DNA from: a virus
Direction: 5' to 3' (one strand)
DNA length: 64,000 nt
Virus record (IMG/VR): IMGVR_UViG_3300050190_000082
Location: 64,001 to 128,000 of that record
A program made the position numbers and the translations under genes. Every line of letters begins with the position of its first letter. Positions within the stretch are counted from its first letter, which is position 1. Below the pieces are notes generated by a model that saw only the letters and a list, made by a program, of their open reading frames with translations, was not told the origin of the DNA and did no database searches. Below are positions 6,975 to 62,075 of the stretch, in pieces.

Positions 6975-7089
6975 TTATCAATCCTTCCTTAATAGGTCTA
7001 TAATTTGGAATAAGACACTCAAACTCTAAGGAAAGTTCAAGCATCTCGTTTTAAAAGTTACAGACTTCGAACCCTGCAACTCAACCAAA
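6975..7089 (-). promoter_or_regulatory. structured RNA leader L1 (3-way junction + pseudoknot at the SD)
   Basis: P1 UUUGG/CCAAA; P2 AGUUGCAG-gguucgaagu-CUGUAACU; P3 loop UUCCUUA (7027-7033) complementary to UAAGGAA (6985-6991) overlapping the SD. Confidence 0.65.
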
Positions 7090-7587
7090 AATTAATTTCA
7101 AATTTTTAAATCTACATAAAATAGAGACTTCTTTAAAAGCTCAAAACTTACCTCACTCATGCTCTCATATGCTTCCATTTACTCCAATTCCCTAGCATAC
7201 AAATAAGTTAAAATCTCCCTTTTATTTGAAGGTAACAAAACTTTTTAAGCAAAATATAGTTTTGCTAATACAATTTTTTGTTCTTAAATCCGCACAACAA
7301 AAAGGAGAGTTATATTTCAACTCTCCTTAAAACATAATTAACTTATTTTTACAATATCAATCAATCCCATTTCACAAAACTCAAATTTAGCGTATAATAA
7401 ACATAATAGTTAAGTAATATATTGAAAATCAAGAAAAATAACATTTGTATATATTATTTATTAGTAGTATAATAATTAATAAGGAGGTGAGGACTGTTAG
7501 GGATATCTTTTAGAAATATCTTTGGTAAGAAACAGGACCATCCATTCGCTAAAAAAATATCCAAAAGAAGAGAGGGGAAAACACTAC

Positions 7588-8997
7588 ATGAAAAAAACTA
7601 AAAAGTTCTTAGCTAGTTTGGTAATTATGGGTATGGTTGCTACCATGGTCCCACTAAATGTTTTGGCAGCAACAGGGGTAACAACGGATCGAATTGGTGG
7701 TGCAGACAGATATCAAACTGCTAATGCCGTAGCAGATAAGATTGTATCTCCGACTACTGCAATCCTTGCCCCAGCTGAAAATGATAACTTGGTAGATGCC
7801 TTAGCGGCAGCACCATTAGCTGGAACCAAATCTCCTATTTTACTGACGCAAAGCAACACCCTGACTGCTGCTACAAAAACTGAACTGGCTAAACTAGGCG
7901 TTACAAAGGTCTATGTAGTTGGAGCAATCAGCAAAACAGTCGTCGACCAAGTAAGTGCAATGGGTATTACAGTTACCACTCTCCAAGGCGCTGATCGTAT
8001 TGCAACTGCGGCTATGATTTCTTCTAAACTCACCACCGCACCAGCAGGTTCATTCGTAGTTGGCTATAATGCTTTGGCAGATGCATTGTCGGTAGCTTCT
8101 TATGCAGCAGCTAATAACTATTCTATCTTAGTAGCAAATCCTGATGGAAGCCTTCCGGTATCCGAGGCCACTTATAAAGGTGCTAAAGTTTACACCGTCG
8201 GTGGACCTAAACTCGTAGCAGACATCGCTGGTGCTACTCGTCTCGCGGATACAGATCGATTCGCTACGAATAAAGTCGTGCTCGAAACTCTTGGTTACAC
8301 CTATAACAAAGTCTATGTTGCTAACGGAACACAGGCACACTTAGTTGACTCACTCGTTGCTTCATCCTTAGCTGCCTTAGATGGCGCTCCAATCGTTCTG
8401 ACAGACACATTTACTGGCGGGGATGCTACTGCAGCTGCCATCGGTACTAAACTTGCTGACAATGCGGTAGTGGTTGCACTTGGTGGAGATCAGGTTGTTA
8501 CGAATGAAACTTTGGCGAAGGTTACCAAAATAGATTATACTTACACTGTAACAGACGGTAAAGCCCAAATTACGAGGTACACAGGGGATGGTGGAGCTAT
8601 TGCAATACCAAGTACATTAGGTGGAGTTCCTGTCATAAGCATCGGCTACGACGCTTTTTTCTATTGCACAGGCTTAACTAGTATTAGTATTCCGCAAGGA
8701 GTCACAAGTATCGGTGACGGGGCTTTTGCCTTTTGCACAGGCTTAATTAGCATTACCATTCCTAAAGGAGTCACAAATGTATCCAGCTATGTCTTTTACT
8801 ATTGTCCAAACTTAACTACTATTAACTTTAACTCGGCAACAACAACTATATATGATGATTCATACACAATTCCAGACACAACAAAGATTATAGGATATGC
8901 CTCATCTACCGCAAAAGATTACGCTACAAAATATGGAAACACGTTCGAAGTTATACCAGAAACGTTAGCTGCTTTAATGGACAGGATTCATACTTAA
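7588..8997 (+). CDS. secreted cell-wall protein: signal peptide, three CWB2 (cell wall binding 2) repeats, C-terminal BspA-type LRR; host-derived moron
   Basis: GADRYQT...DALAAAPLA...PILLT repeats; IPQGVTSIGDGAFAFCTGL LRR units; RBS GAGGGG before ATG 7588 (track start 7522); visibly higher GC than its flanks. Confidence 0.85.
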   Translation: MKKTKKFLASLVIMGMVATMVPLNVLAATGVTTDRIGGADRYQTANAVADKIVSPTTAILAPAENDNLVDALAAAPLAGTKSPILLTQSNTLTAATKTELAKLGVTKVYVVGAISKTVVDQVSAMGITVTTLQGADRIATAAMISSKLTTAPAGSFVVGYNALADALSVASYAAANNYSILVANPDGSLPVSEATYKGAKVYTVGGPKLVADIAGATRLADTDRFATNKVVLETLGYTYNKVYVANGTQAHLVDSLVASSLAALDGAPIVLTDTFTGGDATAAAIGTKLADNAVVVALGGDQVVTNETLAKVTKIDYTYTVTDGKAQITRYTGDGGAIAIPSTLGGVPVISIGYDAFFYCTGLTSISIPQGVTSIGDGAFAFCTGLISITIPKGVTNVSSYVFYYCPNLTTINFNSATTTIYDDSYTIPDTTKIIGYASSTAKDYATKYGNTFEVIPETLAALMDRIHT

Positions 8998-9065
8998 ATA
9001 TACACAACAAAAAAGAAGAGTAAAACTCTCCTTTAAGCTAAACTATAATTTCCACATATTCCCTA

Positions 9066-9210
9066 TTGTAAATAAACCATAACCATGTTACATTTACCTT
9101 GCTTGATACCAAAGCAACCAAGTGTAGAATATTGTTCTACATTCTTCAAAGGAGATTATGCCTTCTTTGAAGAGGGAAGAAGATCATATTAATTTATGGT
9201 CTTCTTTTTA
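9066..9210 (+). ncRNA. candidate small RNA (~9101-9210) with its own sigma-A promoter and terminator
   Basis: TTGTAA-17-TACATT with TG extension (9066-9094); three hairpins, then terminator AGAAGATCATA/TATGGTCTTCT-TTTT; no credible ORF. Confidence 0.5.
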
Positions 9211-9258
9211 ATTATCTATTTTGAATCTAGGTTTTGATACGTTGGTTCATTTTCGATC

Positions 9259-10125: not shown

Positions 10126-12087
10126 TTAGAAATTTATGTATCTTCTATTAGATTCTATATCCATATTATTATCTTTTAAATATTGCAACATAATTGGTTT
10201 AATCATTGACTTCTTAAATGTATCAGATTTAATATCCAATAATTCTTTTACTTTTGCTTTACTTAATCCTTGTTCAAGTAGTGTTTCATTCAAAATCAAT
10301 CCATCTCTATAATCTTCATCTGCTAAAACTTTATCAAAGAACTCAATCAAAGTTTCAACTACATCTTTTTTATTCTCTACAACCTTACCACTTTTCTTTG
10401 ATTGATATTTTAATCCCCAATTATATGTAATTTGGATATCAGGCATAGCTTTTTCAATAAGAGCATCAACTTCTTTATCTCTGTTTATCAAATAAGCATA
10501 AGTTTCAGGACAACCACCATCTACATATCCACGAGATTTAACTCTATTTAATGTTTGTACTATTAATGAACTAATCACAGATACTTTAACTTTCTCAAAT
10601 TCCTCTTGTTTGTATTTTCTATTGCCTTTGATTGGAATAAGAGTAGTATCTAAAGAATTAAATTTATCTGCTGATAGTTCATTCTCACTTACTGAACTTG
10701 TAAAATACATTAATGGATATATTGCATCTGGTAAAAGTTGAATCCCTAATACAAATATTAAATCAAACTCACTCCATTTATTACTTCCTATTGTCCTTCC
10801 ATAATGAGTAATATCAATTTGATCTATTTTCTCATATCCTTTAAATGCTTCTCTAATAATCTTATCTCTTTCTTCACCATTAGTAACTATCAATACTTTT
10901 TCAGCATCAGTTATTTTGCTTTTAATATCTTCAATAATTGTATCTAATAACCCATCCTCTAATCCTTTTCTCATTGATGCAGAAGAACCAGTTACTCCAT
11001 TAAAAATGTTTAAGTGCATATTCTTATATGATTTAATTTGTGGTAAATCTCTTACATCTGACTTGTTGTTAATCTCATATAAATAGTTAATACCTGATGT
11101 AGCGTCTAATGTTACTTTGTAGAAATAAGGATTATCCATATCAATGTACTTATATGTAATTATGGATTTATATTTTATATCGTCACTAATATTTACATAC
11201 CCACCAGTAGCTAACATTGTTCTAATTGCCAGATATGATTCTTTTGCTTGTTTATCTTTGCAAGTGAAGAATAATTCATCTAGTCCTTCAGGCACTTCAA
11301 TATTTTCAAAGGTAGAAAAGAATACGCTATTTTTCTTTATGTCATATGGCTTTAAAAATTCCTTCTTAATCTTAGTTACAAAACCATTAAATCTATCATA
11401 AATATCTTCATTACCCATATTCATAATTGCATTTTCCATTGCACAGATTGAGTTCATGCTGACTGTCATAAATTGAACATTGTTTATGGCTTCATCCACA
11501 ATCAATCTCTCCCTATAAAAAGTATTATATTTACCATGTTTAGTGTTAATTCTTTTATCAGACCACTCACATAATTTATTTACTTCATCTTTGTCAATCA
11601 ATTGTAGAAATCCATTATGAGTTAATACAATCACTGGATATTCTTTTAATTCTTCATTATCAATGGAGTTTCTTTTTCTATCATTAAGTTTATCAAATCC
11701 ACTGTGATAAGCATAAGCTAATTCTATTCCTGCTTTTCTATTAATTGATCTCACAGTTTCATCGCAATCTTCTTTTGTAAGTTTTAATATAATTGTCCCA
11801 GAATATGGTTGTAATAATTTGTTGTTTAACATGTAGGAAATACCATTATTCATTGCTGTAGATTTTCCACAACCAGTAGGAAAGTTGACTATTGCTTTCT
11901 TATCTCTGATAGGGTAAAACATAATGTAATAAAGTAATTGTTTAAGTCCTTTGTAGTATTCTCCACCACTAGGAATAATGACGTTGTAAGTTGCTAATTC
12001 TTTGATTGTTAATTCTGTTGCTTCTGCTACATGTTTCTTTTTTGTTTCAAGTTCCATCTTTTCTAGAAATTCTTTGTAATTCATCAT
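10126..12087 (-). CDS. superfamily-2 helicase-like protein (possible replication initiator)
   Basis: Walker A FPTGCGKST, Walker B LIVDEA, motif VI-like QTLNRVKSR; AAGGAG RBS favours the start at 12087 (track 12105). Confidence 0.65.
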   Translation of the reverse strand: MMNYKEFLEKMELETKKKHVAEATELTIKELATYNVIIPSGGEYYKGLKQLLYYIMFYPIRDKKAIVNFPTGCGKSTAMNNGISYMLNNKLLQPYSGTIILKLTKEDCDETVRSINRKAGIELAYAYHSGFDKLNDRKRNSIDNEELKEYPVIVLTHNGFLQLIDKDEVNKLCEWSDKRINTKHGKYNTFYRERLIVDEAINNVQFMTVSMNSICAMENAIMNMGNEDIYDRFNGFVTKIKKEFLKPYDIKKNSVFFSTFENIEVPEGLDELFFTCKDKQAKESYLAIRTMLATGGYVNISDDIKYKSIITYKYIDMDNPYFYKVTLDATSGINYLYEINNKSDVRDLPQIKSYKNMHLNIFNGVTGSSASMRKGLEDGLLDTIIEDIKSKITDAEKVLIVTNGEERDKIIREAFKGYEKIDQIDITHYGRTIGSNKWSEFDLIFVLGIQLLPDAIYPLMYFTSSVSENELSADKFNSLDTTLIPIKGNRKYKQEEFEKVKVSVISSLIVQTLNRVKSRGYVDGGCPETYAYLINRDKEVDALIEKAMPDIQITYNWGLKYQSKKSGKVVENKKDVVETLIEFFDKVLADEDYRDGLILNETLLEQGLSKAKVKELLDIKSDTFKKSMIKPIMLQYLKDNNMDIESNRRYINF

Positions 12088-12089
12088 TG

Positions 12090-12183
12090 TTAACATCTCC
12101 TTCAATATTGTCCTTAAAAATATAATAAACAGACAGGCACTAAGGATTGTGCTTTTCGGATGGCCTACCCTAGTCTGTTTATT
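12090..12183 (-). promoter_or_regulatory. structured RNA leader L2
   Basis: P1 AAUAAACAGAC/GUCUGUUUAUU; P2 GGGU-aggcc-AUCC; GAAAA linker; P3 GCAC-aauccuua-GUGC; loop pairs with UAAGGA (12111-12116) just upstream of the SD. Confidence 0.7.
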
Positions 12184-12422
12184 TGTGCCAAATTAAGACA
12201 CACAAAAAGCACCTCAATAAGAAGTGTTTTTAATCTGCCATAATTTTTTAATAAAAGGAGAGCTATTTTAACAATAACTCCCCTAAACCCTATAAAATCA
12301 TTTTACACTTTTAGAATACCATTATTTACGTCACTCATGCTCCTATTTACTCCATAATGCTTCCATATACTACCCAATCTGTTTTGAAAATCACGATCAA
12401 TTAAAATTCCAATTTTAATCTG

Positions 12423-13285: not shown

Positions 13286-14449
13286 TTATATTAAAAAAGA
13301 ATTACCTTTGTTAGATAATTCTTTAAGATAGTTGTCCAATATTGTTTCAATATTATCAAAATCCCAATACCAAATCTCTAAAAAATTATATCCATTAGAT
13401 AATGCATATTCTTTCTTACGCTTATCATGTTCTTGTTGTCTTGCGAATTGTTTTTCTGCAAATTCTAGTCCTTTGCCTTTAAAATCTATTGGCTTCTCAT
13501 GTTGTTCTCCTTGAAATTCTATCAAAAGATTATATTTTGGGACATAAAAATCGTATGATAATAAACCACCACCTAAACCAATAAGCCCTTTAAATTCTTT
13601 TTGAGGTATGAAATAAATATTATTTTTATTATTGAATAATTTAATTGCTTTTTCTCCTACTGATTTGTTACATTCTGGGCAACCGTTATTATTTCTTTTA
13701 CATATGGGCGTTTCCCATTCATGTCCACATTCTTTACATAACCACCATGCGTATTTGCCACTTCCACATGTTACATCATAAGGAGTCAAATCTCCATTCT
13801 TAGTAGGATGCCATTCTTTAGCTAGTTCAGGATTAAGTGTTGCTAAACAATTCGATAACCCTACTTGTCTTCCAGCACAAAATGGGCAACCTGCACCAAT
13901 ACTAATATGCCCCCAATCACATTTAAATTTTTCCCCACATTTTAGACACTGCCATTCTAATTTTTTATCAGACCCATTATATTCTTTGCTAACAAGTATA
14001 AATGGTTTATTATTAAACGTACACCATAATTCTATGTTTTGAAGTGTATATGGGTTTGTTTTACCAAATATTTCAGGCACTCCTTGTTGTTGTAAGGTTA
14101 CTAAGGATAAGGCATAGAAATACCCTTCACTATCTTTAAATATCAATTTATTATAAGCTCTTATATATATATCACTTATTAACTCTAATGGTATATTATT
14201 TAATTCTATTAAGAGTTTAATATTTTGTATTGTATATGAGTTAGATTTATGAAATTTTCTCGCTTTTTTATTAGTAATAAGATTATTCAATTCAACCTCA
14301 TAATAGTAACCATCTTTATCTTTTATTAATAATTTTTGGTAATTATTTATGTAATATTTAGTTAGCAATTCATATCCCAAACTATTAATAATTTCTTCAA
14401 CCTCTTGGATAGTATGTTTCTGTGAGTTTTTACGTCCTCTATCTGACAT
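13286..14449 (-). CDS. free-standing zinc-ribbon + PD-(D/E)xK putative homing endonuclease
   Basis: GCPFC/GCPEC zinc ribbons; YDFYVP...LIEFQGEQH; paralog of 5808..6968; inserted in the lysis module. Confidence 0.75.
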   Translation of the reverse strand: MSDRGRKNSQKHTIQEVEEIINSLGYELLTKYYINNYQKLLIKDKDGYYYEVELNNLITNKKARKFHKSNSYTIQNIKLLIELNNIPLELISDIYIRAYNKLIFKDSEGYFYALSLVTLQQQGVPEIFGKTNPYTLQNIELWCTFNNKPFILVSKEYNGSDKKLEWQCLKCGEKFKCDWGHISIGAGCPFCAGRQVGLSNCLATLNPELAKEWHPTKNGDLTPYDVTCGSGKYAWWLCKECGHEWETPICKRNNNGCPECNKSVGEKAIKLFNNKNNIYFIPQKEFKGLIGLGGGLLSYDFYVPKYNLLIEFQGEQHEKPIDFKGKGLEFAEKQFARQQEHDKRKKEYALSNGYNFLEIWYWDFDNIETILDNYLKELSNKGNSFLI

Positions 14450-14454
14450 TATTT

Positions 14455-14562
14455 AATTTCCCCTTCCGTCATAGAAAAGCACAAATGGAAGAAGAGACCC
14501 ATGTAACGGCATAAGTCTCTAGTTTTACACTTATTAGACTTCGAACCCTAATAAGAAACCAT
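14455..14562 (-). promoter_or_regulatory. structured RNA leader L3
   Basis: P2 CUUAUUAG-gguucgaagu-CUAAUAAG (same loop as L1); P3 AGAGACU.AUG-ccguua-CAU.GGUCUCU; loop pairs with UGACGG (14466-14471) abutting the SD. Confidence 0.7.
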
Positions 14563-38699: not shown

Positions 38700-38925
38700 A
38701 CCTGCTACCGCCGTTGCAATTCCTGCTTGCTGAACTTGATTATAATCATTCCAATGTGAACTTATTGTCTTCAAAACATCATCAAAGCTTTTAAATTCAC
38801 CACTTGAACTGCGGATTGTTACACCCACTGAATTTAATACTTTTTCAACATTATTTAATGGTTCCCCATTAAGATCATTCATTACTCCAGCTTTTACATT
38901 TTCGTATCGGCTAAATATGGAATTG
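38700..38925 (-). CDS. tail tape measure protein, exon 2
   Basis: NSIFSRYENVKAG...VEKVLNSVGVTIRSSSGEFKSFDDVL...IATAVAG, typical tape-measure core. Confidence 0.9.
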
Positions 38926-39254
38926 CAAATCTGTTACTTTCGCTTATTCATAAAAATAAGTTACTGACTATTCAAATAAATGAATAGCGGAAATGGTTCT
39001 TCTTTAGGTAATTATTTCATACCGACCATTTCTCTCTCCCTTATTATGTGGAATATAGGAGACGTTCAGACTGTCGCATATGGATAAATATATTTATTTA
39101 TCCATTTCTCTCGTTCAGTCGTTCACAGTGATATCAACTATTATTTAATGTAATTGATGTCTTCTGCCCTGTCACCCAACCACTGGGCTTCCAAGTCGAT
39201 TAGAGAGAATTTTCTTAGCAGTTTATGTATTATGCCACTAAGCCCCCAACATTA
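38926..39254 (-). ncRNA. group I self-splicing intron A (329 nt, no ORF) in the tape measure gene
   Basis: P1 UCCCU^uaauguu-GGGGG; P7 GACUG/CAGUC (39116-20/39069-73); P3 UCUCUC/GAGAGA; P8 UGGAU/AUCCA; ends ...AUUUG; splicing gives GTSL-NSIFSR in frame. Confidence 0.9.
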
Positions 39255-41443
39255 AGGGACGTACCAATACTATCCGCACTTTGACGAGTAGTTGATGAAA
39301 TTGTACCTATATATGAAATTAATTCTGGAAGACTTACAGACGCAGCCTGTGCTGAAAATGCTGTTTTCTGAATTGCTGCACTTAATTCCGCAGTTGATGT
39401 TGCAGATGTGTTGTCCACTGCGACCATTTTATCGACAAATCCCATCATATCGGTAGCTGACATTTTGTAAGAGTTCATGACGCTAATTAAACTCTGTGCA
39501 GAATCTTGTTGAGATTGACCTGCAATCTTACTCATGACTGTACTACTTTTTAATAATTCAGATGTGCTACTCGCAGAATTGCCAGCTCTTAGGAATTCCT
39601 CTGATGCAGTCATTATTTCAGACGTAGTTTCATGTAATTGTCCTGCCAATGCGGAATAATCTTGTGTCATCTGTACAATAGAATCATGAGAATTTCCTGT
39701 TATCATAGCGATATTTGTCATGTTCGCATTTATACCGTTTATAAAGGCAAATCCATCCTTAATTTGTTTAAGGGTCGAAAATAGGGCACCGCCAACGATA
39801 GACCACTGAACCATCTTAATTCCATTATTTACCAAATCTGCACCAAACCCCTGAGCAGCAACTTTAGCTTCATTTAAACCAGCTTTCATGTTGTTGGTAG
39901 CTGACGTTACTTGAGCAGATTCCGCTTTAAATGCTTCCATATCAGCAACATTAGTTAAAGAACTTGAGGATGCTGTTATTGAACTAATTTGAGACTGTAC
40001 ATCAGGTGTTTTGGCCAAACTTCCGAATTGACTCTGAATATTACGAAGTGCTAGTGCGTTACGCTCTTGAAAAAGTGCAATTGATCTTTGTAATTCAACA
40101 TTTTCTAATCTCGTATTTTCTATTTCCTTATCCGCTACAAGTTGTATACTTGTTTCTGATCTCATACTTGCCATTAAACTCTTGAGAGAATCTAATTGGC
40201 TAAAAGCTTCTGATCCAATAGAAATTGCACTTAATTTTTCTTGAAGTAAAACCATTTGATCTTCAGTTAACTTAACAGAAGAAGCTCCACCTCTAATCTC
40301 TGCAAACAGCAAGTTATATTTTTCTTGTTGTGACTGAATGGCTAAAGTTTGCTTTTCTTCCAAACTTATTGTTTGGGTTATTTGATTATCCATTTCTACA
40401 AGAGCAGAGACATTATCAAGTATTTCTTGCTTTAAGGTATCAGAGAAACTTCCACTATTTAAAGCATTTATTTTCTCTTCTAATGTAGCCAACTCTACCG
40501 ATAATTTTTCGACATTGGTAATATCGTCTAATTTTACTATTTGTTTCACTTGAAATAAATTTAACTTTTCTTCTAAACTTAATGTTTTATCTATTTGAGT
40601 ATCCATATCTTGAAGAGAGGATATATCATTGAGTATTTCTTGTTTAAAAGAATTTGTAAAATTATTTCCATTTAAACTATTTATTTTTTCTTTAAGTGTA
40701 GTTATCTCAACAGATAACTTTTCTGCATTCACAATATCATCTACATTAAATATCTGCTTTTGTTGAAATGCTCCTATATTATCTAACTCTTTTACAGTAG
40801 CTATTTCTTGTTTGTAGGCATTGATTACCTCATCAACTGCTAGTTTAGCTTCTTGTTGATCTATTGTAGAAGAGTTAGAGTTTAATCCAGATACCAAACT
40901 TTCGGCATTTATAGCCAATGGTTTTGCGGATATTGGCATACTCCCTAAATCAGACATTGACGCTCTTAATTTTTCTTGAGTAATTACTAATTTTTCAGCT
41001 TCAATTCGATTTGCTTTATAACCATCTACTGTTTGTAATATAGTTCCTTTCCATATCTTTGTATGGTCTCCGGCTTCACTTATTACAGTATCGAAATTCT
41101 TCGTTTCCTTAACTGCCTGACCTAAACTGTTTGTAAATTGAGTAGTTTGAGTTTTTAGGTCTTCGAATACCTTTCCAGAAATATCCTTAGTAACTTTAAA
41201 TTTTTCCGTAAAACTGTCTATTCCAGTAGAATCTACATTAATTTTCATTGGACTATTTGCTTCACTGGTTAAAGTTTGTATCTTTGATGTGATAGCATTT
41301 AAAGCGTCACTATCTGTTTCAACTTTTAACTTGATTGGGTTACCATTAATTTCATCACGAATACTATTTATACTATTTAATATACTCTCTTTCGATTTGC
41401 TGTCTAAAATCGCTTGTATATTAATCTGAATCATATCTGACAT
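39255..41443 (-). CDS. tail tape measure protein, exon 1 (TP901-family core; ~71-aa tandem repeat)
   Basis: MTNIAMITG...EEFLRAG...DKMVAVDNTSATSTAELSAAI...STTRQSADSIGTSL; spliced exons total 6093 nt = 2030 aa + stop. Confidence 0.9.
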
Positions 41444-43341: not shown

Positions 43342-46044
43342 TTATGCTACAATTTTATTAACTTGTAATATCATAGCCATTAATTTTTTATACTTCTCTC
43401 TAAGTAATTCAAAATTATTTTTCAAATCACAAGGATAGATATCTAAAAACATAATATTATTATTGCTTTTATAATATTCATTTTTCCTATCCGTTTTGAA
43501 TCTGTAATCTATGATTCTTTGCAACGGGTTAGTCAATGAATACAAACCGTAATACTCCAAATAGATTGGCTTTTGAAGTCTAATTTTTGTGCCAGACTTA
43601 TCATTAATATATTCAATTACAAAATCTGGACAATATTTATTGTCTTCATGATCATATGGCAGAATAAAGGAATGTTTGCCACTATGTTTAGACCCAATTG
43701 CTTCAATGTATTGAATTCCTAGCTCTCTCTTTAGGTATTCATATAAAACCTTTTCTTCGATACTATCACATATTGTTCTATCATATGCAACACACAAACC
43801 GAAATCTTCTGGTATCCAATAATTTGCGTATTCAGGAAATGCTTCACAACACCATGTATAGAAGTTTTTAAAACGTTTTTTATTAATATGTTTGATAAAT
43901 TTAGGATAACAAGTTGCAATAAATGGTCTATTAATATAACTAGGGATGTCATCAATAGGATTTTTAATATATCCATCTAATCTGAATTCAACTAGTTCTC
44001 TCAACATTCTTAGGAGAATGGGCTTATCTGATTTATTGAATTGATGCCATTCCCAATCAAACAAGATATTATTTTCTTTAATTATTGGATATGATTCTAC
44101 CAATAAATCATACAAAGATAAATTATAACTGTTGTATGCAAATATTTTAGAAATTAATTCACTCCTAAAATATTCATATACCCATAATTTTAAATTATCA
44201 GTATTATTAATTGTATTCAATATACTTTCTTTGCATTCCTGTTCACAATAATGTTTTATTTTATCCAACCTATTTTGTTTATTTTGCCAAAAACTATGGG
44301 GTACGCTTTCAAAATCCCATACATCAATAGGTCTAAAATAAATAGGATGAAGTATATTATTATATTCATAATACCACATTACGATATCAAATATTGAAGA
44401 AAACTTTCTTGCCCATAAAGCATCCATTTTCTTACTGAATTTTTCTCCTAACCCACTTTTCAATAAATCATTTGCAGATAGTTTGTTATCATTCATCCAA
44501 CATGAAATAATTTCATTTATATTTATATCTGTATATAATTCTGGAAATACATCATTTTCTGTAATATTTAACTCAGGAAAACATTTTTGAAACGCTAGTA
44601 ATTTCCCTCCAAGTCTAAAAATAGACATATCTATTCTATATTTTTCAAATTCTTGGCTGCCAATTGAACAAATTTCTTCTATAGAATGTAAATTGAGCTT
44701 AATATTAAATATATATCTGATTATATCTATAATATTTTTATCTTGGTAACAAAATTCAGGCATTTGTTTTAGATTATTATTTAAAAATGCGTCATACCAT
44801 GAATAAATATTGTATCTGTCGGTAATAAGTATATTATTCTTCTTACAAGATTTAAGTAAATTTCTTTCATAAGATTCTTTTGTTTCACAATCTTTACATA
44901 TATATTTTAACCCAAATTTCGACCCTATACCTTTAGAAAAATTATCCTCTATAAATTCTTTAATTTCTCCACATTTAATACATTTGATTGCATTTGGTTT
45001 TATAAATATTATATTGTAATTTTGTCCATCAATAATATTCCTAAATTTATCAACATTTGTTTCTTGTGATAAATCATAAACTGGAGTAATATAATTATAC
45101 ATTTGTTTTAACGAATTTTCCTTAAAATATTTAAAGAATTGTGTCCTACATATATATCCGTCGTTATTATTTAATTCCTTATCAATAGGGAATTTTTTAT
45201 TAATTTCACAAAACCTTATAATCTCATTTATTAATGTTTTACCATTATTATCTAGAGTATTATATTCATTTGTTAACTTATATACTTTCCCTTCCAATAA
45301 TTTAGGAACACAATCACTTTTAATATCAAATGAATAATTATCTTGCAACATTTCTTCTTTTGAAAATATTTCACCATACATTTCTTCAAATAAAAAAATG
45401 TTACTTCCATTAAACTTTACATTGCATAAACCGAGAAAATAATATTCACTTAGTAAATTATTAAATCCAAATGACCCAGCACAATTTATATTATCTATAC
45501 CTTTATTTTCTAATAATTTTTCCTTAAACCATTTTAAAGCATTATTAGTATTTTCTTCTGTCCATCCATTCCCTATAGTAGAAGACCTTAGTTCCCAAGG
45601 TTGAATATTATATTCTGGAAATGATTTTATTAAATAATTATATAGACTAAATTTTTTAATGCCTAATAATCCACCTAAACCATTATCTTTAAAAGTCTTT
45701 GTAGAATAATTATTGCAAATATCTTCTTTATTCCATTTTAAAATATCATTTATCATGTACCTAATTAAAATTATTATGTATTCATCATGGTTATATACTC
45801 CATTTGTAAATACTTTAATTTCTTTATTTAATAGTGCTTTATACATAAAGATTACTTCATCTTCTGTTAGGGAATTAATGATCTCAAACTTATTAAGTTT
45901 CAATTTTTTAGAATATAAACTTATAGTTGAAATTGATTTACCATAATACTTTTCTAATTGATACATAGACATTTTGCGAAAATTAGATGTAAATTCTTCT
46001 TCAGAAATATACCAAGGAATTATTACTTTAACTTCTTTACTCAT
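43342..46044 (-). CDS. 900-aa free-standing nuclease-like protein: DUF4046-like helical repeats, zinc ribbon, C-terminal PD-(D/E)xK domain
   Basis: FPEYNIQPWEL-type repeats; CIKC...CKDC; CDSIEE...CPDFVIEY...IYLEYYG...YRFKTDRKNEYY. Confidence 0.65.
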   Translation of the reverse strand: MSKEVKVIIPWYISEEEFTSNFRKMSMYQLEKYYGKSISTISLYSKKLKLNKFEIINSLTEDEVIFMYKALLNKEIKVFTNGVYNHDEYIIILIRYMINDILKWNKEDICNNYSTKTFKDNGLGGLLGIKKFSLYNYLIKSFPEYNIQPWELRSSTIGNGWTEENTNNALKWFKEKLLENKGIDNINCAGSFGFNNLLSEYYFLGLCNVKFNGSNIFLFEEMYGEIFSKEEMLQDNYSFDIKSDCVPKLLEGKVYKLTNEYNTLDNNGKTLINEIIRFCEINKKFPIDKELNNNDGYICRTQFFKYFKENSLKQMYNYITPVYDLSQETNVDKFRNIIDGQNYNIIFIKPNAIKCIKCGEIKEFIEDNFSKGIGSKFGLKYICKDCETKESYERNLLKSCKKNNILITDRYNIYSWYDAFLNNNLKQMPEFCYQDKNIIDIIRYIFNIKLNLHSIEEICSIGSQEFEKYRIDMSIFRLGGKLLAFQKCFPELNITENDVFPELYTDININEIISCWMNDNKLSANDLLKSGLGEKFSKKMDALWARKFSSIFDIVMWYYEYNNILHPIYFRPIDVWDFESVPHSFWQNKQNRLDKIKHYCEQECKESILNTINNTDNLKLWVYEYFRSELISKIFAYNSYNLSLYDLLVESYPIIKENNILFDWEWHQFNKSDKPILLRMLRELVEFRLDGYIKNPIDDIPSYINRPFIATCYPKFIKHINKKRFKNFYTWCCEAFPEYANYWIPEDFGLCVAYDRTICDSIEEKVLYEYLKRELGIQYIEAIGSKHSGKHSFILPYDHEDNKYCPDFVIEYINDKSGTKIRLQKPIYLEYYGLYSLTNPLQRIIDYRFKTDRKNEYYKSNNNIMFLDIYPCDLKNNFELLREKYKKLMAMILQVNKIVA

Positions 46045-46049
46045 ATTCT

Positions 46050-46160
46050 TTCTACCTCCGATAATTTTTACTCCCCTTAACCCTTACAATTTCTATATAA
46101 TACAGAGGGGGTGGCTGGAGTATGCCAATCAGGGTTATAACTCCTGATCTTCCCTCTGTA
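46050..46160 (-). promoter_or_regulatory. structured RNA leader L4
   Basis: P1 UACAGAGGG/CCCUCUGUA; P2 AUCAGG-aguuauaac-CCUGAU; P3 UGGC-auacucca-GCCA; loop pairs with GGAGUA (46069-46074) upstream of the SD GGAGGU. Confidence 0.7.
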
Positions 46161-46256
46161 AAACTAACAAATTAATCTAATTTCCTGACAAATCCTGTCG
46201 AATTATCTCAATTACCACCTTAACATGATAGAATAATTCGACAGGAGGTGAAAAGA

Positions 46257-50785: not shown

Positions 50786-51880
50786 TTATTCCTCTTCTTT
50801 AACTTCTTCCTCAATAACCTCTCTGTTAGTTTCAATAACTTTCATTTTCTTTAACATTCCATTCTTTTCTTCGGCAAATGTTCTCAAGTCATAGAAACTG
50901 GATGTGGTGCTAATGTCATTATGTTGTCCTATATGTTTACTAACAAATTTTAAATCCATTCCACCTGCCAAGTAATGACTTATAGCTGAAGCTTTAAATA
51001 AATGCGGATTTATTCTTCGTCCTAAAATATCAGATAAAACATTTGCACACAAATCATCAGCCCATCCTAAAGATATTTGATGATATTCTCCATTAAATTT
51101 CACTGTAAATAGATACTCATGTTCATACCCTCTTTTTTCAACCCATAAGTTTAAGTAATACAAAACTGCTACAGGCACTATATACTCGCATTGCTTTCCA
51201 TCCTCACTAGGGCCTTTCTCGCGTACTGTATTTGACATTACATATTCTTGACCTTCTTCTACTGGTTTAGATATAATCTCGGTTTTAAAACCTCTAAGAC
51301 CACCTCTTCTAGCACCAGTATTAAATGCACACGCTACCCATGCAACTGCAAGGTAATTTTTATCTTCCATAAGAGTGTCTATTAAAAGTTTATATTCTAT
51401 TTCTGATATTGCAATTTTATTATAGACATAATTCTTAGGAATTTTAATGTCTGTTTTTGTGAAGTTATGAAAAGTCTTATACTCATCTACTTCCTCTGAT
51501 AGAATTCTTTCTGCATATTCACAAATTGTACTTACAGAACTTTTCTTGAATCTTATACCTGAACTAGACATACCTCTATTAATTAAATAACTCAAATATC
51601 TATTAAAATCTCTCTTAGTAATATTAAAAAATGCCTTATCATTTAAACATGTTTTAACCCACCATGTGAACTGTTTGATTCCACTCCGATACTGATCTTT
51701 AGTTTGTTTTGATAAGAGAGGATGCATTTCTTGAAATTCTTTAATGAGTTTTAAATTCTCTTCATTGCATTCTTCAAACATCTCATTTGTTACTTCTGGC
51801 AATTTATCTGGTCTTGCTCTGAGCATATTTTTATTGATTATTGCTTTTGGGATTGAGGTAGCTTTTTCCGCGTCTGACAT
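50786..51880 (-). CDS. tyrosine recombinase (integrase family) embedded in the tail-gene region
   Basis: TGARR (R), REKG (K), INPHLFK (HxxR variant), GQH, FYD (Y). Confidence 0.85.
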   Translation of the reverse strand: MSDAEKATSIPKAIINKNMLRARPDKLPEVTNEMFEECNEENLKLIKEFQEMHPLLSKQTKDQYRSGIKQFTWWVKTCLNDKAFFNITKRDFNRYLSYLINRGMSSSGIRFKKSSVSTICEYAERILSEEVDEYKTFHNFTKTDIKIPKNYVYNKIAISEIEYKLLIDTLMEDKNYLAVAWVACAFNTGARRGGLRGFKTEIISKPVEEGQEYVMSNTVREKGPSEDGKQCEYIVPVAVLYYLNLWVEKRGYEHEYLFTVKFNGEYHQISLGWADDLCANVLSDILGRRINPHLFKASAISHYLAGGMDLKFVSKHIGQHNDISTTSSFYDLRTFAEEKNGMLKKMKVIETNREVIEEEVKEEE

Positions 51881-53550
51881 TAATTCACCATCCTTAGTTT
51901 ATTTACTATATATTTAGCTTTATCTGTTCTTATTTTTGTTGCGGTTATTTTATTGAAACCATTTTTACAATTAATCAAATCAGAGAGATATAATAATTCT
52001 TGCTCTTGAATAATAAAATTAGTGTCCAAACAATACTCATAAAAACACAACCTTGCATCAATATAAGTTCCAAAGTGCTTTTTAGTAGCTTCTGCTAAAC
52101 CAGTAATGTTCCTGTCAAAAGAAGACATCTTTTTATATTCATTATTCTTCAATATGTGATTATAAGTTTCAAGCATGTGCTTAAAACCATCAAATATATT
52201 ATTTTTATTCCATTTATTAACCTGATAAGATGTAAATTTACCGTATTTTTTAGCAAAATTATAATAAGTTCCATATCTCTTCAAAGCTTCTAGAAATAAT
52301 CTGCTTTTGCCATTTTTACTCAACACTCCTTGTGTTGGTAGTATACTTTTGTCGTAACCATATCTCATTATTTCTTGTAACAGTTCTATATCGTTAAATT
52401 TGTTAGGTGGTATTATAATTTCTTGCTCAATATGCTCACATTTTAAGTCTATAAAGTCTTTAAAAATATCCTTTAAACTAATCAAAATGTCATTGTAATG
52501 TTGTTTGTAAAACGTTTCATAATCTATACTTATCAATCTATAATTATTATCCTTATATAGTTTCTCCTTTAATTTACGTTTATTATTATAAACAATCCCT
52601 CTTTTAGTAACGTCATCATCCTTTGGAAAGCCCCATACCTCTATTTGAATAATTTCTCCACTAGATAAATGAATAGCAAAATCACTTCTATAATTTTTGT
52701 ATTTACCTTCAAATGGGTGATCTTCTCTAGTATAAAACATGTTGTTAGTTATTAAATACTGTGCTGTCATGTACTCACAAGATGATCTATTATAAAACCC
52801 CCTGTCATCCACCAAGTCATCTTTATCTTCGTAACCCATATCGAATTTAATATTTTTAATACCATCAAATTTAAATAATCGTTCATTAGAAATATGTAAT
52901 ATACTTAAAACTTCCTGCTGTTTTGGAAATCTTCCTAGTTCGATACATAATTCTTTTATATCGTGTTTCATATTATCATAATTGTCATAATAAGTATCTT
53001 CTCTTTCAAACCTTAGTAGTTTTGTATAGTCGTATCCTAATTCAATGCATAAATCCTTAATATTCTCACCATAATCTTGCATGACAGTATGTAGTATAGA
53101 GCCTTCTTTATTATTTTGAATACCATGAATAGTTTCATATTTATCTATATATATTTTCAGTTCTTTCAATCTATTCTCTTTGAATGTCCAATATCCTTTA
53201 TCATTTCTTGTTAAAACATTATTGTTAAATTTATATTCTATTATTTCTCTTTTTTTTAATTGGACACAGTTAATACAACAATATTTTTTAATAATATCAT
53301 TTACTGTTAAACTTTTAAAATAATCTTTATAAGTTATTTGTTTTTCTCCACCGCAATAATCACACTTTACTTCTACTAAATTTTTAGATGATGGTGTTAA
53401 GTGTTCCACTTTTATTAGTATTCTCGATCCTCTTTTATATGTCATTTTCTTCGTATATTTATTATAGAACCTTGGCTTATATCCTAACTCTTCTAATCTG
53501 TTAATATTCTCTGGGTTAATACCCATTTCTACCTCTGTACTAATTAACAT
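51880..53550 (-). CDS. free-standing zinc-ribbon + PD-(D/E)xK nuclease-like protein
   Basis: VEVKCDYCG...CCINC; RSSCE...RSDFAI...IQIEVWG...Y..KRKLKEKLY; stop overlaps the recombinase ATG (TAATG). Confidence 0.7.
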   Translation of the reverse strand: MLISTEVEMGINPENINRLEELGYKPRFYNKYTKKMTYKRGSRILIKVEHLTPSSKNLVEVKCDYCGGEKQITYKDYFKSLTVNDIIKKYCCINCVQLKKREIIEYKFNNNVLTRNDKGYWTFKENRLKELKIYIDKYETIHGIQNNKEGSILHTVMQDYGENIKDLCIELGYDYTKLLRFEREDTYYDNYDNMKHDIKELCIELGRFPKQQEVLSILHISNERLFKFDGIKNIKFDMGYEDKDDLVDDRGFYNRSSCEYMTAQYLITNNMFYTREDHPFEGKYKNYRSDFAIHLSSGEIIQIEVWGFPKDDDVTKRGIVYNNKRKLKEKLYKDNNYRLISIDYETFYKQHYNDILISLKDIFKDFIDLKCEHIEQEIIIPPNKFNDIELLQEIMRYGYDKSILPTQGVLSKNGKSRLFLEALKRYGTYYNFAKKYGKFTSYQVNKWNKNNIFDGFKHMLETYNHILKNNEYKKMSSFDRNITGLAEATKKHFGTYIDARLCFYEYCLDTNFIIQEQELLYLSDLINCKNGFNKITATKIRTDKAKYIVNKLRMVN

Positions 53551-53554
53551 TTAC

Positions 53555-53640
53555 AAACATCTCCTTTAATATTGTCCTTAAAAAGTAAAGCAGGAAGGCG
53601 TTAAGGAAAACGCTTTTCGTGTAGCTATTCACTATCCTGC
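53555..53640 (-). promoter_or_regulatory. structured RNA leader L5
   Basis: P1 GCAGGA/UCCUGC; P2 GUG-aauagcua-CAC; GAAAA linker; P3 GCG-uuuuccuuaa-CGC; pseudoknot with UAAGGA (53575-53580); 3' part nearly identical to L2. Confidence 0.72.
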
Positions 53641-53715
53641 AATTGTGCTAATTTATTGCACAACAAAAAAGACACTCTAATGAATGTCTCAAGTTCTAAA
53701 ATAAATTATTATTTA

Positions 53716-54271: not shown

Positions 54272-55030
54272 TCAAATTAGTTCTTTATTGCTACCACCAT
54301 CTAGTAACTTTCCATATTTAACATTCAGTTGGTGCTTCACATAATCATATTTGAACCCCAATGCAGTCAAAGCTGTTACAATTGTTTCTGCTTCATCTAC
54401 TATTTTTAATTCTTCTTGAGTCAAATAATCTCTTGTTAAATCACTTTTCTTATTTATATTTCTAGTTTCTCTTATCTTTTTAGCAGTCATATTAAATAAA
54501 ATCTTATAAACCATATCTGTATAATTAGAATAAGTAAAATGTTTTGCATTTGGGATGTAAGTTTGAATGCTAGATGTCATCCTCTTTCTATCTATTTTAG
54601 ATACTTCTCTTTGTAAATTCCATTCTTCTTTTTTCTTTAAGAATACCTGTGCTAAAACGTCTTTAGCTTTCATTTGATATTCTACTAATCTCTCAACAAC
54701 TTCAGATTGTTTTTTAATCATATTAGGAGTAATTGAAATTTTTGCTAAGAATAAAGGTAAATAATCTAGTTCCATACATAAAGATTGCTGATTACCACCC
54801 TTTGTAGGGAGTTGCAAATTTGCAATACCTCTCATTAGTACAGTATCATCTTGAACTTTTCTAGTAAAACTTTGCCATTGACCTTCTGTCATTCCAATTC
54901 CCATATAGATTGGTTTAAGCCCAACATAAGTTTTATTTTGTTTTATATGTTGTACCACTAATATTTGATCTCCTAGAAATTCGATTTCGGCAACTTTAAA
55001 ATCACCTAGTTTTACTAATTCATTTTTCAC
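54272..55030 (-). CDS. phage antirepressor (P22 Ant N-terminal-like domain)
   Basis: IEFLGDQIL...YVGLKPI..GIG...GGNQQSLCMELDYLPLFLAKI...EYQMKAKDVL; C-terminal domain shared with 49620..50540. Confidence 0.75.
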   Translation of the reverse strand: MKNELVKLGDFKVAEIEFLGDQILVVQHIKQNKTYVGLKPIYMGIGMTEGQWQSFTRKVQDDTVLMRGIANLQLPTKGGNQQSLCMELDYLPLFLAKISITPNMIKKQSEVVERLVEYQMKAKDVLAQVFLKKKEEWNLQREVSKIDRKRMTSSIQTYIPNAKHFTYSNYTDMVYKILFNMTAKKIRETRNINKKSDLTRDYLTQEELKIVDEAETIVTALTALGFKYDYVKHQLNVKYGKLLDGGSNKELI

Positions 55031-55034
55031 AATG

Positions 55035-55103
55035 AATCTCCTTGCTCATTTTATTGTGGAAGTACGAGCAATACTTATCAGTGCGTTTATAGCAACCTAT
55101 CCT
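55035..55103 (-). promoter_or_regulatory. structured RNA leader L6
   Basis: GGA-ua-P2(GGUUGC..GCACU)-gaua-P3(AGUA-uugcucg-UACU)-UCC; loop UUGCUC pairs with GAGCAA (55042-55047) abutting the SD GGAG. Confidence 0.62.
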
Positions 55104-55188
55104 TGTATCATCTTTGTGACACAACAAAAAACACCTCTTGAGTAGAAGAGATGTATTTTAGTCAATCACAAATATTCACTTATATTCC

Positions 55189-58291: not shown

Positions 58292-58306
58292 TTATTTATT
58301 CACCTC

Positions 58307-59572: not shown

Positions 59573-59579
59573 AAAAATG

Positions 59580-60059: not shown

Positions 60060-60087
60060 CTGCCATTCAATTATTTATCCCTAATTA

Positions 60088-60738
60088 CTAACTAATCATT
60101 TCATTTGTCATTTCTTGGATGCTATTGATTGCATATTTAGAACTATAATGATTTTGAACCTCATTATATTTATTATTTCTCAGACATTCAGAATTACCTT
60201 TAATATATTCTTGTAAAAAGAACTCTAAAAATGCCCATGCAACCACAGGAGAAAACCCATTAAGTTCTTTCAGCATTTCCATATTATCAATTTTGAGCAA
60301 TTCTTGAAATTTACTTTTATCTGCACCATGCTCTTTAAATGAATAGTCGATATTAAAATATTCCCTAACTTCTTTATCTAAGATAACTATTTCAAAAGTA
60401 TCAAACCATTCTTTAAAGGCATAATACATTTCATCAAGAATTTCAAATTTAATTCTTCGTTCATCAAATAATTTATTAAATTTAATGTTAACTCGTCCAC
60501 GAATAAAGGATGCACTACCAGGAGCCATATGCATAATTCCAACCATTTTATCAGGTTTAATTGAATTAACTGTAATTTCTTGTTGTGCTTCTTTTTCACT
60601 TAATTGTTTTTCAAGTTCATCAATTTTTAGTTGACTTGATTTAGATGCTTCTGCAATTGCTTTAGTTACAGCTTCTTTTATCAAGGCTTGAATATCAACT
60701 TCTGGAGTCTCTTTTACAGTTGTCTTTTTTACTACCAT
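60088..60738 (-). CDS. hypothetical head-region protein
   Basis: ORF track; AAGGAG RBS. Confidence 0.6.
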   Translation of the reverse strand: MVVKKTTVKETPEVDIQALIKEAVTKAIAEASKSSQLKIDELEKQLSEKEAQQEITVNSIKPDKMVGIMHMAPGSASFIRGRVNIKFNKLFDERRIKFEILDEMYYAFKEWFDTFEIVILDKEVREYFNIDYSFKEHGADKSKFQELLKIDNMEMLKELNGFSPVVAWAFLEFFLQEYIKGNSECLRNNKYNEVQNHYSSKYAINSIQEMTNEMIS

Positions 60739-60768
60739 TAATTTTTAATTCTCCTTATTAAAGAAATT

Positions 60769-61968
60769 TTATATTGCTAATTTATTATTTAAAATTAGAT
60801 TATCATATACACCATTTTTATAGTTTTCTTGAAATTCATAAAACTGTTCAGGAGTATTACCACCACGACCTTGTACTGAATGAAATAAGATATGTAATTC
60901 TTCAGATAAACATACACCCAACCCATATCTATAATGTAATTCTAAACACTTATCTTTTATAAGTTGTAAATCTTCAACATTATATTCGCTTAGCGTACTA
61001 TGTACTGGTAAATTCAACTCACTTAAAGTTTCTTTAACTATAAGTTCAAATCCTTTTAAATGATGAACAACATCGAATTTTCCACCTGTCAGGATACACT
61101 TATAGTTGCAATTTGCTATTGAATCTTTATTCCATTGTGTAATTATTTTCCGCAACCAATGGTTTAATGCTGTTATTCCACCTTTCCATTGATATGCGTT
61201 TTTCCCTGATTTACTTTCCAATCCACACTCTGGGCATCCACGATCTCTGGTGAATGAATTCGGGGAAATTTTATAATCTGGATGTTTGTTATTTTCTTTT
61301 TGACACTTCATTAATATATTTACGTTAGGTGTTCCATAGCTAATTTGCCAAGGATCAACAATATTATTTTTATGCCAATATTTGTCTAAGAAACTTTCAC
61401 CTAGATTATCTATGCCATATTGAGCAAATGAATTACATTTACTGCAAACCATACAACCCATTGTTTTACTACTGGTTATAGAATTAATTTTAATTAATTC
61501 ACTTTCATGTAATCCTTTTGGACATTTGAAGTAATATTTTTTACCACTACCATAGGGAATATCAGAAGGTTTACATTTGTTTACTTCATAATCCCATCTA
61601 TCTAATATCTCTTTTGCATAGCTTACATCAAATAATTCATAGCACTTTTCTTCAAAAGATATCCATTTCTCATTGTTATTTTTAGAGCAAAGATTACAAT
61701 AATAATTTCCGTCTTCTTTTACACAGCTTTGATAATTTTCATATATTATAGATAATTCTGCGTTACAGGCATCACATTTAACTTTTACATAAACGTGACT
61801 ACTTTCTGTTAAATCTTTAGGTTTTACTATAATTTTTGTTCCGTTTGGGATAGATATTCTATTCCATTTATCTTTTCTCTTTGGTATTGTAATTCCTAAA
61901 TCTTCATAATGTTTAACATTTCTCGGATTTATCGAAACTTCAATATCTTGATCAATAATTAATCCCAT
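60769..61968 (-). CDS. free-standing zinc-ribbon + HNH endonuclease inserted downstream of the major capsid gene
   Basis: VKVKCDAC N-terminus (shared with 51880..53550); GCPEC; WKGGIT...CILTG....VHHL...GVCL.EELHILFH..G.G.NT; start 61968 after GAGGTG (track 62001). Confidence 0.75.
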   Translation of the reverse strand: MGLIIDQDIEVSINPRNVKHYEDLGITIPKRKDKWNRISIPNGTKIIVKPKDLTESSHVYVKVKCDACNAELSIIYENYQSCVKEDGNYYCNLCSKNNNEKWISFEEKCYELFDVSYAKEILDRWDYEVNKCKPSDIPYGSGKKYYFKCPKGLHESELIKINSITSSKTMGCMVCSKCNSFAQYGIDNLGESFLDKYWHKNNIVDPWQISYGTPNVNILMKCQKENNKHPDYKISPNSFTRDRGCPECGLESKSGKNAYQWKGGITALNHWLRKIITQWNKDSIANCNYKCILTGGKFDVVHHLKGFELIVKETLSELNLPVHSTLSEYNVEDLQLIKDKCLELHYRYGLGVCLSEELHILFHSVQGRGGNTPEQFYEFQENYKNGVYDNLILNNKLAI

Positions 61969-61969
61969 A

Positions 61970-62075
61970 TTACACCTCACTTTATGTAATTGACTTTTCA
62001 CTTTTTATAAAATAAGGAAAGGAGCAGTAGTGAATCTGCTCCAATAAGAATCATGACTTCTTATTTTATCCTTAT
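61970..62075 (-). promoter_or_regulatory. structured RNA leader L7
   Basis: P1 AUAAGGA/UCCUUAU; P2 AUAAGAA-gucauga-UUCUUAU; P3 GGAGCAG-auucacua-CUGCUCC; loop pairs with AGUGAA (61997-62002) or with AGUGAG at the SD. Confidence 0.72.

Follow-up and report, generated by a model that had tools for sequence, protein, structure and literature searches.

The question raised by this stretch of DNA is why seven genes for nuclease-like, antirepressor, helicase and related proteins should each be preceded by an RNA leader of the same shape. The window that we analyzed is the 64,000-nucleotide stretch at bases 64001-128000 of IMGVR_UViG_3300050190_000082, a low-GC viral metagenome record of 153,759 bp. 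A preliminary description had proposed that seven leaders in it, L1 to L7, adopt one fold, in which a closing stem (P1) surrounds two hairpins (P2 and P3) and the P3 loop pairs with a site downstream of P1 at or just before the Shine-Dalgarno (SD) sequence. All the P1 stems, loop/site complements and shared strings that it quoted were present on the minus strand where it had placed them. Our analysis indicates that the seven are probably cis-acting 5' leader RNAs of one design, which we propose to be cis translational switches, that two of them (L2 and L5) belong to the int-alpA motif, and that the seven would head insulated units of genes whose dosage is likely to matter. All seven lie on the minus strand and all positions are window coordinates unless marked as genome positions; where the P3 loop has two complements, the one further from the start codon is called the decoy. 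The leaders and their parts are listed below.

6969..7089 (-): leader L1 (group B); P1 is UUUGG 7089-7085 with CCAAA 7008-7004; the P2 hairpin loop is GGUUCGAAGU; P3 hairpin at 7047-7012; pseudoknot of loop UUCCUUA 7033-7027 with UAAGGAA 6991-6985, a site that overlaps the SD AAGGAAGGA.
12088..12183 (-): leader L2, an int-alpA RNA (RF02996, 54.0 bits, E 2e-8); P1 is AAUAAACAGAC and begins at 12183; loop UCCUUA 12146-12141, decoy UAAGGA 12116-12111, SD AAGGAG 12102-12097, start codon at 12087.
14450..14562 (-): leader L3 (group B); P1 has just 4 bp, AUGG 14562-14559 with CCAU 14488-14485; the P2 loop is GGUUCGAAGU; pseudoknot of P3 loop CCGUUA 14509-14504 with UGACGG 14471-14466 (one G-U pair), adjoining the SD GGAAGGGG.
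46045..46160 (-): leader L4; three-way junction at 46160-46101; P1 is UACAGAGGG; loop UACUCC 46122-46117, site GGAGUA 46074-46069, SD GGAGG 46059-46055.
53551..53642 (-): leader L5, an int-alpA RNA (RF02996, 37.1 bits); P1 GCAGGA begins at 53640; loop UCCUUA 53607-53602, decoy UAAGGA 53580-53575, SD AAGGAG 53566-53561.
55031..55102 (-): leader L6 (UGAUAAG subfamily); GGAUAG 55102-55097; P3 AAGUA/UACUU; pseudoknot of loop UUGCUC 55071-55066 with GAGCAA 55047-55042, a site that overlaps the SD AAGGAG 55043-55038.
61969..62075 (-): leader L7; three-way junction at 62075-62012; P1 AUAAGGA; loop UUCACU 62034-62029, decoy AGUGAA 62002-61997, SD region AGUGAGGUG 61981-61973.

The string AGGGUUCGAAGUCU is common to L1 and L3, and GAAAAGC plus UAAGGACAAUAUU.AAGGAGAUG to L2 and L5. 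Single-sequence folding gave the three-way junction as the minimum-free-energy structure of L1, L2, L4 and L7; the junction of L5 was taken from its Rfam alignment and not from its minimum-free-energy fold. Folding z-scores were -3.7 for L1 and L7, -2.2 for L3, -2.1 for L2, -1.6 for L5, -1.5 for L4 and -0.24 for L6. We also scanned both strands of the whole 154-kb genome, with dinucleotide shuffles as controls, for a descriptor made of P1 around two hairpins, short junctions and a P3 loop that has a 6-nucleotide Watson-Crick complement within the 50-55 nucleotides that follow. With loose settings (P1 of at least 6 bp, stems of at least 3 bp and a 6-nucleotide pseudoknot) the real sequence yielded 209 clusters and the shuffled sequences 192-240, which is chance level. 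Because the loose fold is equally common in shuffles, shape alone is uninformative in AT-rich DNA, and in this form the fold fails the shuffled-sequence check. The energy-filtered fold passes it. A strict descriptor (P1 of at least 4 bp, a 6-nucleotide Watson-Crick pseudoknot and an energy of -12 kcal/mol or lower) matched six places in the genome, namely L4 (-24.8), L7 (-21.9), L2 (-15.2), L1 (-13.1), L5 (-12.0) and one antisense site outside the window, and each of seven dinucleotide shuffles gave 0 or 1 match (about 0.4 per shuffled genome). Five of the six real matches are thus leaders already noted, and L4, L7 and L2 are the top three energy-ranked descriptor matches in the 154 kb. L3 was missed by the strict descriptor because its pseudoknot contains a G-U pair, and L6 because its fold is weak. 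No strict match was found upstream of any structural gene in the whole-genome scan, as the preliminary description had claimed. The leaders are confirmed as real and not due to chance. The sixth match, at genome 48617-48677 (-), lies antisense to a coding sequence, precedes no gene and fits the chance expectation.

In nearly every copy the P3 loop is complementary to two places, the decoy 29-63 nucleotides and the SD region 13-20 nucleotides before the start codon; L1, L3 and L6 have a single pseudoknot site that overlaps or abuts the SD. We scored each of nine distinct loop types against its own and against the other leaders' decoy and SD region with 100,000 permutations. Given as loop/decoy/SD, these types were UCCUUA/UAAGGA/AAGGAG, CGCCUU/UAAGGC/AAGGCGG, GUCCUA/UAGGAC/AAGGACGG, ACCUUA/UAAGGU/GAGGUGG, ACUCUC/GAGAGU/AGAGAGA, UCCUUGU/CAAGGA/CAAGGAG, CCUCCU/GAGGA/AAGGAGG and those of L4 and L7. 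The mean complementary run of a loop was 5.9 nucleotides with its own decoy and 3.6 with those of other leaders (reached by 0 of 100,000 permutations), and 5.2 nucleotides with its own SD region (runs of 4-7) and 3.75 with those of other leaders (9 of 100,000). The SDs AAGGCGG, AAGGACGG, AGAGAGA and AGUGAGG deviate from the AGGAGG consensus exactly where their own loops deviate. The claim that the pseudoknot covaries therefore stands on this cognate matching, and also on an ortholog of L6 described below in which loop and site change together.

The complementarity of the P3 loop to the SD region fits the translational role that had been proposed, and we infer that the two pairings may switch translation and in which direction. 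The 6-9-nucleotide P3 loop is anti-SD-like in sequence. Since decoy and SD use the same loop bases, their pairings are mutually exclusive. When the loop sits on the decoy, the ribosome-binding site would be free (ON), and when it sits on the SD, initiation would be blocked (OFF); in L1, L3 and L6 the pseudoknot would simply sequester the SD. Such a two-state design needs a trigger, which could be folding kinetics, temperature, or a protein or ligand. The leader would open a small, insulated unit of expression, located behind a terminator or, in other phages, directly behind a consensus promoter, and would travel with genes whose dosage is likely to matter, such as those for free-standing homing-endonuclease-like proteins, antirepressors, a helicase and primase-like proteins.

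About 30 further copies came from related viral contigs (G002-G005 and L followed by three digits, such as L127, denote related or other viral records or contigs, not leaders). A descriptor scan of five related records gave ten more stable copies. When viral contigs were scanned with a pattern, 19 copies were confirmed by the model, and 12 of these are distinct. Five viral contigs encode orthologs of the L2 helicase (80-83% identical) that have a leader at the same place, with the architecture kept and a different sequence; a helicase 46% identical to the L2 gene product carries an int-alpA copy at 34.1 bits, and helicases 63-69% identical sit in operons without a leader. Two sets, with 9 and 12 distinct copies, were aligned to the model; paired cells amounted to 94% and 93.5%, compared with 30-52% in slid controls with the 3' partner moved by 1-3 columns. 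The stems covary as claimed: 12 out of 18 stem pairs changed on both sides, and none of 500 shuffles reached the covariation score. MAFFT alignments of the diverged leaders were structurally out of register and were excluded from these counts. The stems include G-U pairs, and every element has the same orientation as the gene that follows it.

Individual loci bear this out to different degrees. The L6 antirepressor has an ortholog in G005 (64% identical) whose leader keeps P3 AAGUA/UACUU, with loop and site jointly changed from UUGCUC/GAGCAA to UUACCCA/UGGGUAA; this covariation leads us to accept L6 although its fold is weak. P1, P3 and the pseudoknot persist in the G005 ortholog of L3, the L127 lineage has the L1/L3 layout with the pseudoknot CCGAUA/UAUCGG upstream of an HNH gene, and an L7 ortholog (protein 83% identical) retains the fold. 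Homologs of the L4 gene (56-57% identical; L304:1-126 and L305:535-803) are preceded by a different fold, a hairpin loop CCUCCAAC with two copies of GUUGGAGG of which the second is the SD, so that the triad of loop and two sites recurs there in an unrelated structure, and the homolog in contig L003 has no junction leader. No relatives of the L5 protein were found in the viral contigs. Separately, in ENA contig L013 a RAGATH-18 RNA (RF03064, 64.4 bits) lies at 379-442 (+), about 1 kb upstream of an int-alpA-led helicase gene.

The preliminary description had presented the leaders as a novel system, and here it did not hold. With 54.0 and 37.1 bits, L2 and L5 exceed the gathering cut-off of RF02996 (int-alpA), which is 35.8 bits. 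So do nine of the copies from the viral-contig pattern scan (40.8-52.6 bits) and a G005 copy (39.5 bits); an RF02996 search of the genome collection missed copies that cmscan later scored, probably owing to its first-look filter. The alignments of L2 and L5 to the RF02996 consensus comprise the three-stem junction, the conserved junction bases UA, GAAAA and CU, the CCUU loop and the AAGG tail 3' of P1, and this conserved tail is the pseudoknot site of the preliminary description. Because their core is a known candidate motif, the leaders appear, as far as sequence can tell, to extend that motif and are not a categorically new class. The loss of novelty is softened by the standing of int-alpA as a motif without a reported function.

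The idea of one fold in seven copies survived in part. The architecture is common to all, with P1 reduced to 4 bp in L3 and a weak fold in L6; at the sequence level the leaders fall into several families on this one architecture and are not one family. A single family for all seven was rejected, as RF02996 at E <= 10 matched nothing in the window besides L2 and L5, so that L1, L3, L4, L6 and L7 fall outside it by this criterion, and our own covariance model R1 likewise gave no match to these five. No Rfam family besides int-alpA matched the leaders. Pairwise similarity was significant only for L2-L5, L1-L3 and L6 with the UGAUAAG subfamily, which is marked by GGAUAG, a P2 hairpin and the UGAUAAG junction and occurs upstream of DUF4379 genes in G003 and G004. 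The link of L7 is weak (z = 3.2, reached by 1 of 200 shuffles), which leaves it effectively a singleton; L4 is a singleton too, and these two are thermodynamically the strongest leaders. Outside the int-alpA copies the junction bases differ: L4 and L7 lack the J2/3 bases, L6 has UGAUAAG, and L1 and L3 have UGUAAAAC-type linkers. L6, L1/L3, L4 and L7 escape the Rfam model and are candidates for diverged structural variants, either homologs of int-alpA or convergent designs.

Two further readings of L1 and L3 were dropped. A tRNA or tRNA-like origin of AGGGUUCGAAGUCU was rejected since ARAGORN finds no tRNA, and a T-loop reading because the G005 ortholog of L3 carries AGUCGACG instead of GGUUCGAAGU as its P2 loop. 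The 14-mer AGGGUUCGAAGUCU occurs in 112 viral stretches and the L1/L3 layout in only one other lineage (contigs L127/L108/L093); a search with a looser AGGGUUCGAAGUCU pattern gave no clear additional members of this type. Hairpins with the loop GGGUUCGAAGUC, which is the P2 loop of L1/L3, recur in the unrelated viral contigs L114, L110, L101, L044, L043 and L039 and in L092, L088, L077, L069, L052 and L050. One group of these hairpins lies in 5' untranslated regions (UTRs) within anti-SD/SD pairing; another group is terminator-like.

The genes that follow the seven leaders are:

5808..6968 (-): L1 gene, a nuclease-like protein of 386 amino acids that carries DUF4379 treble-clef zinc fingers; 44% identical to its paralog, the product of the L3 gene.
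10126..12087 (-): L2 gene, a 653-amino-acid DEAD-like helicase.
13286..14449 (-): L3 gene, a 387-amino-acid DUF4379 nuclease-like protein.
43342..46044 (-): L4 gene, 900 amino acids without a Pfam match, with a weak endonuclease-VII-like stretch.
51880..53550 (-): L5 gene, 556 amino acids, the N-terminal 78 of which are homologous to the L7 nuclease-like protein; matches phrog_5104.
54272..55030 (-): L6 gene, a 252-amino-acid antirepressor (P22_AR_N).
60769..61968 (-): L7 gene, a 399-amino-acid DUF4379 nuclease-like protein.

Homologs of the L4 gene have a faint DUF4046 match and adjoin a YomO-like gene. The genes after the 30-odd copies encode DUF4379, HNH_repeat, HNH and HNH_3+AP2 proteins, endonuclease PHROGs, AntA/P22-type antirepressors, helicases and a primase-like zinc-ribbon protein, so that by annotation they are overwhelmingly homing-endonuclease-like, and the proposed tie to nuclease-like, antirepressor and helicase genes is borne out. 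No integrase or AlpA gene followed any copy examined.

The preliminary description had placed these genes inside the late operon, a view that the sequences 5' of three of the leaders do not support:

12185..12226 (-): intrinsic terminator 12226-12210, then the dyad UUGUG..CACAA; adjoins L2.
53644..53690 (-): intrinsic terminator 53690-53669, then UUGUGC..GCACAA; 5' of L5.
55112..55154 (-): intrinsic terminator 55154-55131, then the short dyad UUGUGUCACAA; 5' of L6.

No sigma-70-type promoter was found between terminator and leader at L2, L5 or L6. In other phages the same RNA begins within a few nucleotides of the -10 box of a consensus sigma-A promoter, which takes the place of the dyad. Since L2, L5 and L6 directly follow terminators and copies in other phages follow promoters, the units look insulated or separately driven and not simply part of a late operon; L3 and L7 directly follow the upstream gene. 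The TTGTG..CACAA dyad (12208-12185, 53664-53644 and 55127-55112, all (-)) keeps the same position in related records and might serve as a promoter specific to this phage, as an operator or as an additional 5' hairpin; the idea that it is a general phage promoter was rejected, there being no genome-wide enrichment.

A strand-specific leader acting in cis and portable between genes, as had been proposed, agrees with the comparison of loci. L2, which precedes a helicase gene, is nearly identical to a G002 copy that precedes the gene of an HNH_repeat protein; L2 and L5 have common tails; and orthologous helicase genes carry different leader variants or none. At the locus of L5, G002 has an ortholog of the upstream gene with an L2-like leader and another nuclease gene after it, so leaders and genes reassort. 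A comparison with relatives lacking the inserts had been suggested and could be made in part: at the G005 locus that matches L7 the nuclease gene is absent, and a terminator and a plain leader are all that is found there, a single example with diverged flanks. A repeat of about 45 nucleotides, AUGGAAGCAU..AGCAUGAGUGA(G/C)GUAA, occurs at 7188-7148 (-) and 12378-12326 (-) and nowhere else in the genome, each copy upstream of the terminator that precedes L1 or L2; it may be the remnant of a small open reading frame (ORF). At 46170-46245 (-), where the L4 leader and a plus-strand gene starting near 46250 diverge, there is a long inverted repeat, CCUGUCGAAUUAU..AUAAUUCGACAGG, with arms of about 17 nucleotides.

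Some observations weigh against a family of translational switches. L6 is weak as an isolated fold (z = -0.24). Complementarity between loop and SD is partly expected for any anti-SD-like loop, as the non-cognate mean run of 3.75 nucleotides indicates, and decoy pairing is on average slightly longer than SD pairing, so that a trigger would be needed to reach the OFF state. The pair counts use model-fitted alignments, which are biased towards the model structure; the compensatory changes are also visible in the raw alignment rows. The variants outside Rfam may be homologs of int-alpA or convergent designs; significant sequence similarity links only L6 to the UGAUAAG subfamily and L1 to L3. Finally, L4 and L7 have no diverged ortholog showing stem covariation, the L7 ortholog being about 90% identical and the L4 homologs having another leader.

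These points have to be set beside the alternatives, of which a chance product of AT-rich intergenic sequence, picked by eye, is the most remote. The loose fold does turn up as readily in shuffled as in real sequence, at about 200 places per genome, but six energy-filtered matches where about 0.4 are expected, the Rfam matches, the covariation in relatives and the cognate-specific loop/site matching refute chance for L1-L5 and L7; for L6 the refutation rests on one ortholog. It is also very unlikely that the elements act as DNA, as recombination or homing sites or as inverted-repeat protein operators, although a near-perfect DNA palindrome, with UCGA conserved at its centre, makes up P2 in L1/L3 and in the G005 ortholog, and a dyad adjoins L2, L5 and L6. 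Their orientation always follows the gene, their stems contain G-U pairs, the P3 loop complements the ribosome-binding site, and two copies score in an RNA covariance model.

A role in message stability is unlikely. The junction together with an SD-like, 30S-binding decoy could protect the mRNA from 5'-to-3' decay by RNase J1 without any switch of translation; in other phages the element starts within a few nucleotides of a consensus -10 box, so that transcripts would begin with it, most copies have an SD-like decoy, and exonuclease-resistant RNAs have a similar layout of a three-way junction whose loop forms a pseudoknot with a downstream site. However, the decoy leaves the complement of 16S rRNA in step with the loop (GAGAGU, UAGGAC, UAAGGC), which argues that the loop and not the ribosome is the selected partner. 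The real SD covaries with the loop too, which a pure stabiliser would not need, and classical int-alpA occurs in Proteobacteria, which to our knowledge lack an RNase J1-type 5' exonuclease. An improbable reading of about the same weight makes the leader an operator, in which the conserved junction (UA/GAAAA/CU in int-alpA, UGAUAAG in the L6 subfamily) binds a ligand or protein, for example the encoded nuclease, a phage regulator or a host factor, that selects the loop pairing; it would refine the proposed switch and is no true alternative to it. Junction nucleotides are conserved among the int-alpA copies while the stems covary, and a two-state design requires a trigger, but the downstream proteins are too diverse for a single autoregulator and the junction sequences differ among subfamilies. 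With regard to riboswitches, the junction bases are conserved within the int-alpA copies, and the downstream genes are mobile-element genes and not those of a metabolic pathway. We favour the translational switch over these rivals because decoy and SD covary with the loop and not with 16S rRNA.

The closest known system is int-alpA itself, a motif found by comparative genomics (Weinberg et al. 2017, PMC5737381); the main text of that article makes no mention of it. In the searchable literature, including the other papers that use the term, we found no reported function or SD link for the motif, one of many comparative-genomics candidate RNAs left without a function. It was named for its position upstream of integrase or alpA genes and has been described mainly in Proteobacteria. 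Besides passing its cut-off, L2 and L5 have its junction, its UA/GAAAA/CU bases, its CCUU-containing P3 loop and its AAGG tail, and like it they lie 5' of mobile-element genes. In contrast to int-alpA as described, the genes downstream here encode helicase, nuclease-like, antirepressor and primase-like proteins and not integrase or AlpA, the lineage appears to be one of low-GC SPbeta-like phages, and the Rfam model misses five of the seven leaders as well as many of the copies in relatives.

In T4 I-TevI and Aeh1 mobE, simple hairpins lie over the ribosome-binding site and are relieved by transcripts from late promoters inside the hairpin. The present leaders likewise precede phage nuclease genes and have a ribosome-binding site complementary to an upstream RNA segment, here in a cognate-specific manner; they differ in having a conserved three-way junction and one loop with two alternative partners, before many unrelated genes. 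SAM-II, preQ1-II and the T4 gene 32 leader set translation initiation by a pseudoknot that involves or abuts the SD, as may happen here, whereas the window's leaders gave no sequence or model match to them and have the decoy SD copy as an extra part. STAB-SD elements and 5' stem-loops stabilise Bacillus mRNAs, and exonuclease-resistant RNAs use a junction-pseudoknot layout. The leaders resemble these in having a structured 5' end, a junction with a loop pseudoknot and, within the 5' UTR, an SD-like sequence that does not serve initiation; their decoy, in contrast to STAB-SD, covaries with the loop and not with the 3' end of 16S rRNA. As far as could be found, three things have not been reported before: how widely the design occurs, its link with selfish nuclease genes, and the triad of loop, decoy and SD.

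A broader proposal, which we make tentatively and hold to be somewhat doubtful, is that int-alpA is the best-conserved branch of a far larger, fast-evolving class of leaders with an anti-SD loop, a decoy SD and an SD, forming part of a mobile unit of free-standing homing-endonuclease genes and other dosage-sensitive phage genes. If so, a selfish gene would carry its own RNA throttle and could insert anywhere in a phage genome without harm, and a leader belonging to a mobile cassette would help to explain why phage genomes tolerate so many nuclease genes. For int-alpA, the analysis offers a testable mechanism, in which one loop has two mutually exclusive partners, one of them the ribosome-binding site, and a new, coherent association with homing-endonuclease-like, antirepressor and replication genes in low-GC phages. 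It also indicates that the Rfam model covers only part of the family, since orthologous helicase genes carry variants that it misses, and it provides natural compensatory variants to guide mutagenesis, so that the function of the motif becomes directly testable.

In GenBank phages, megablast, blastn and tblastn searches found no close relative of the window, the leaders or the helicase, and a scan of bacterial genome contigs with the L2 helicase for prophage copies found nothing. The phage probably belongs to an SPbeta-like lineage of a Bacillota host, since neighbours of the orthologs carry the Pfam names YonB and YomO. Elsewhere in the window, a group I intron (RF00028, 69.6 bits, E 1e-15) lies at 38440-38709 (-), with a second, sub-threshold match (28.1 bits) at 38943-39264 (-). 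Both sit between the minus-strand ORFs 39230-41443, 38685-38882 and 34643-38323, which resemble exons of one long gene.

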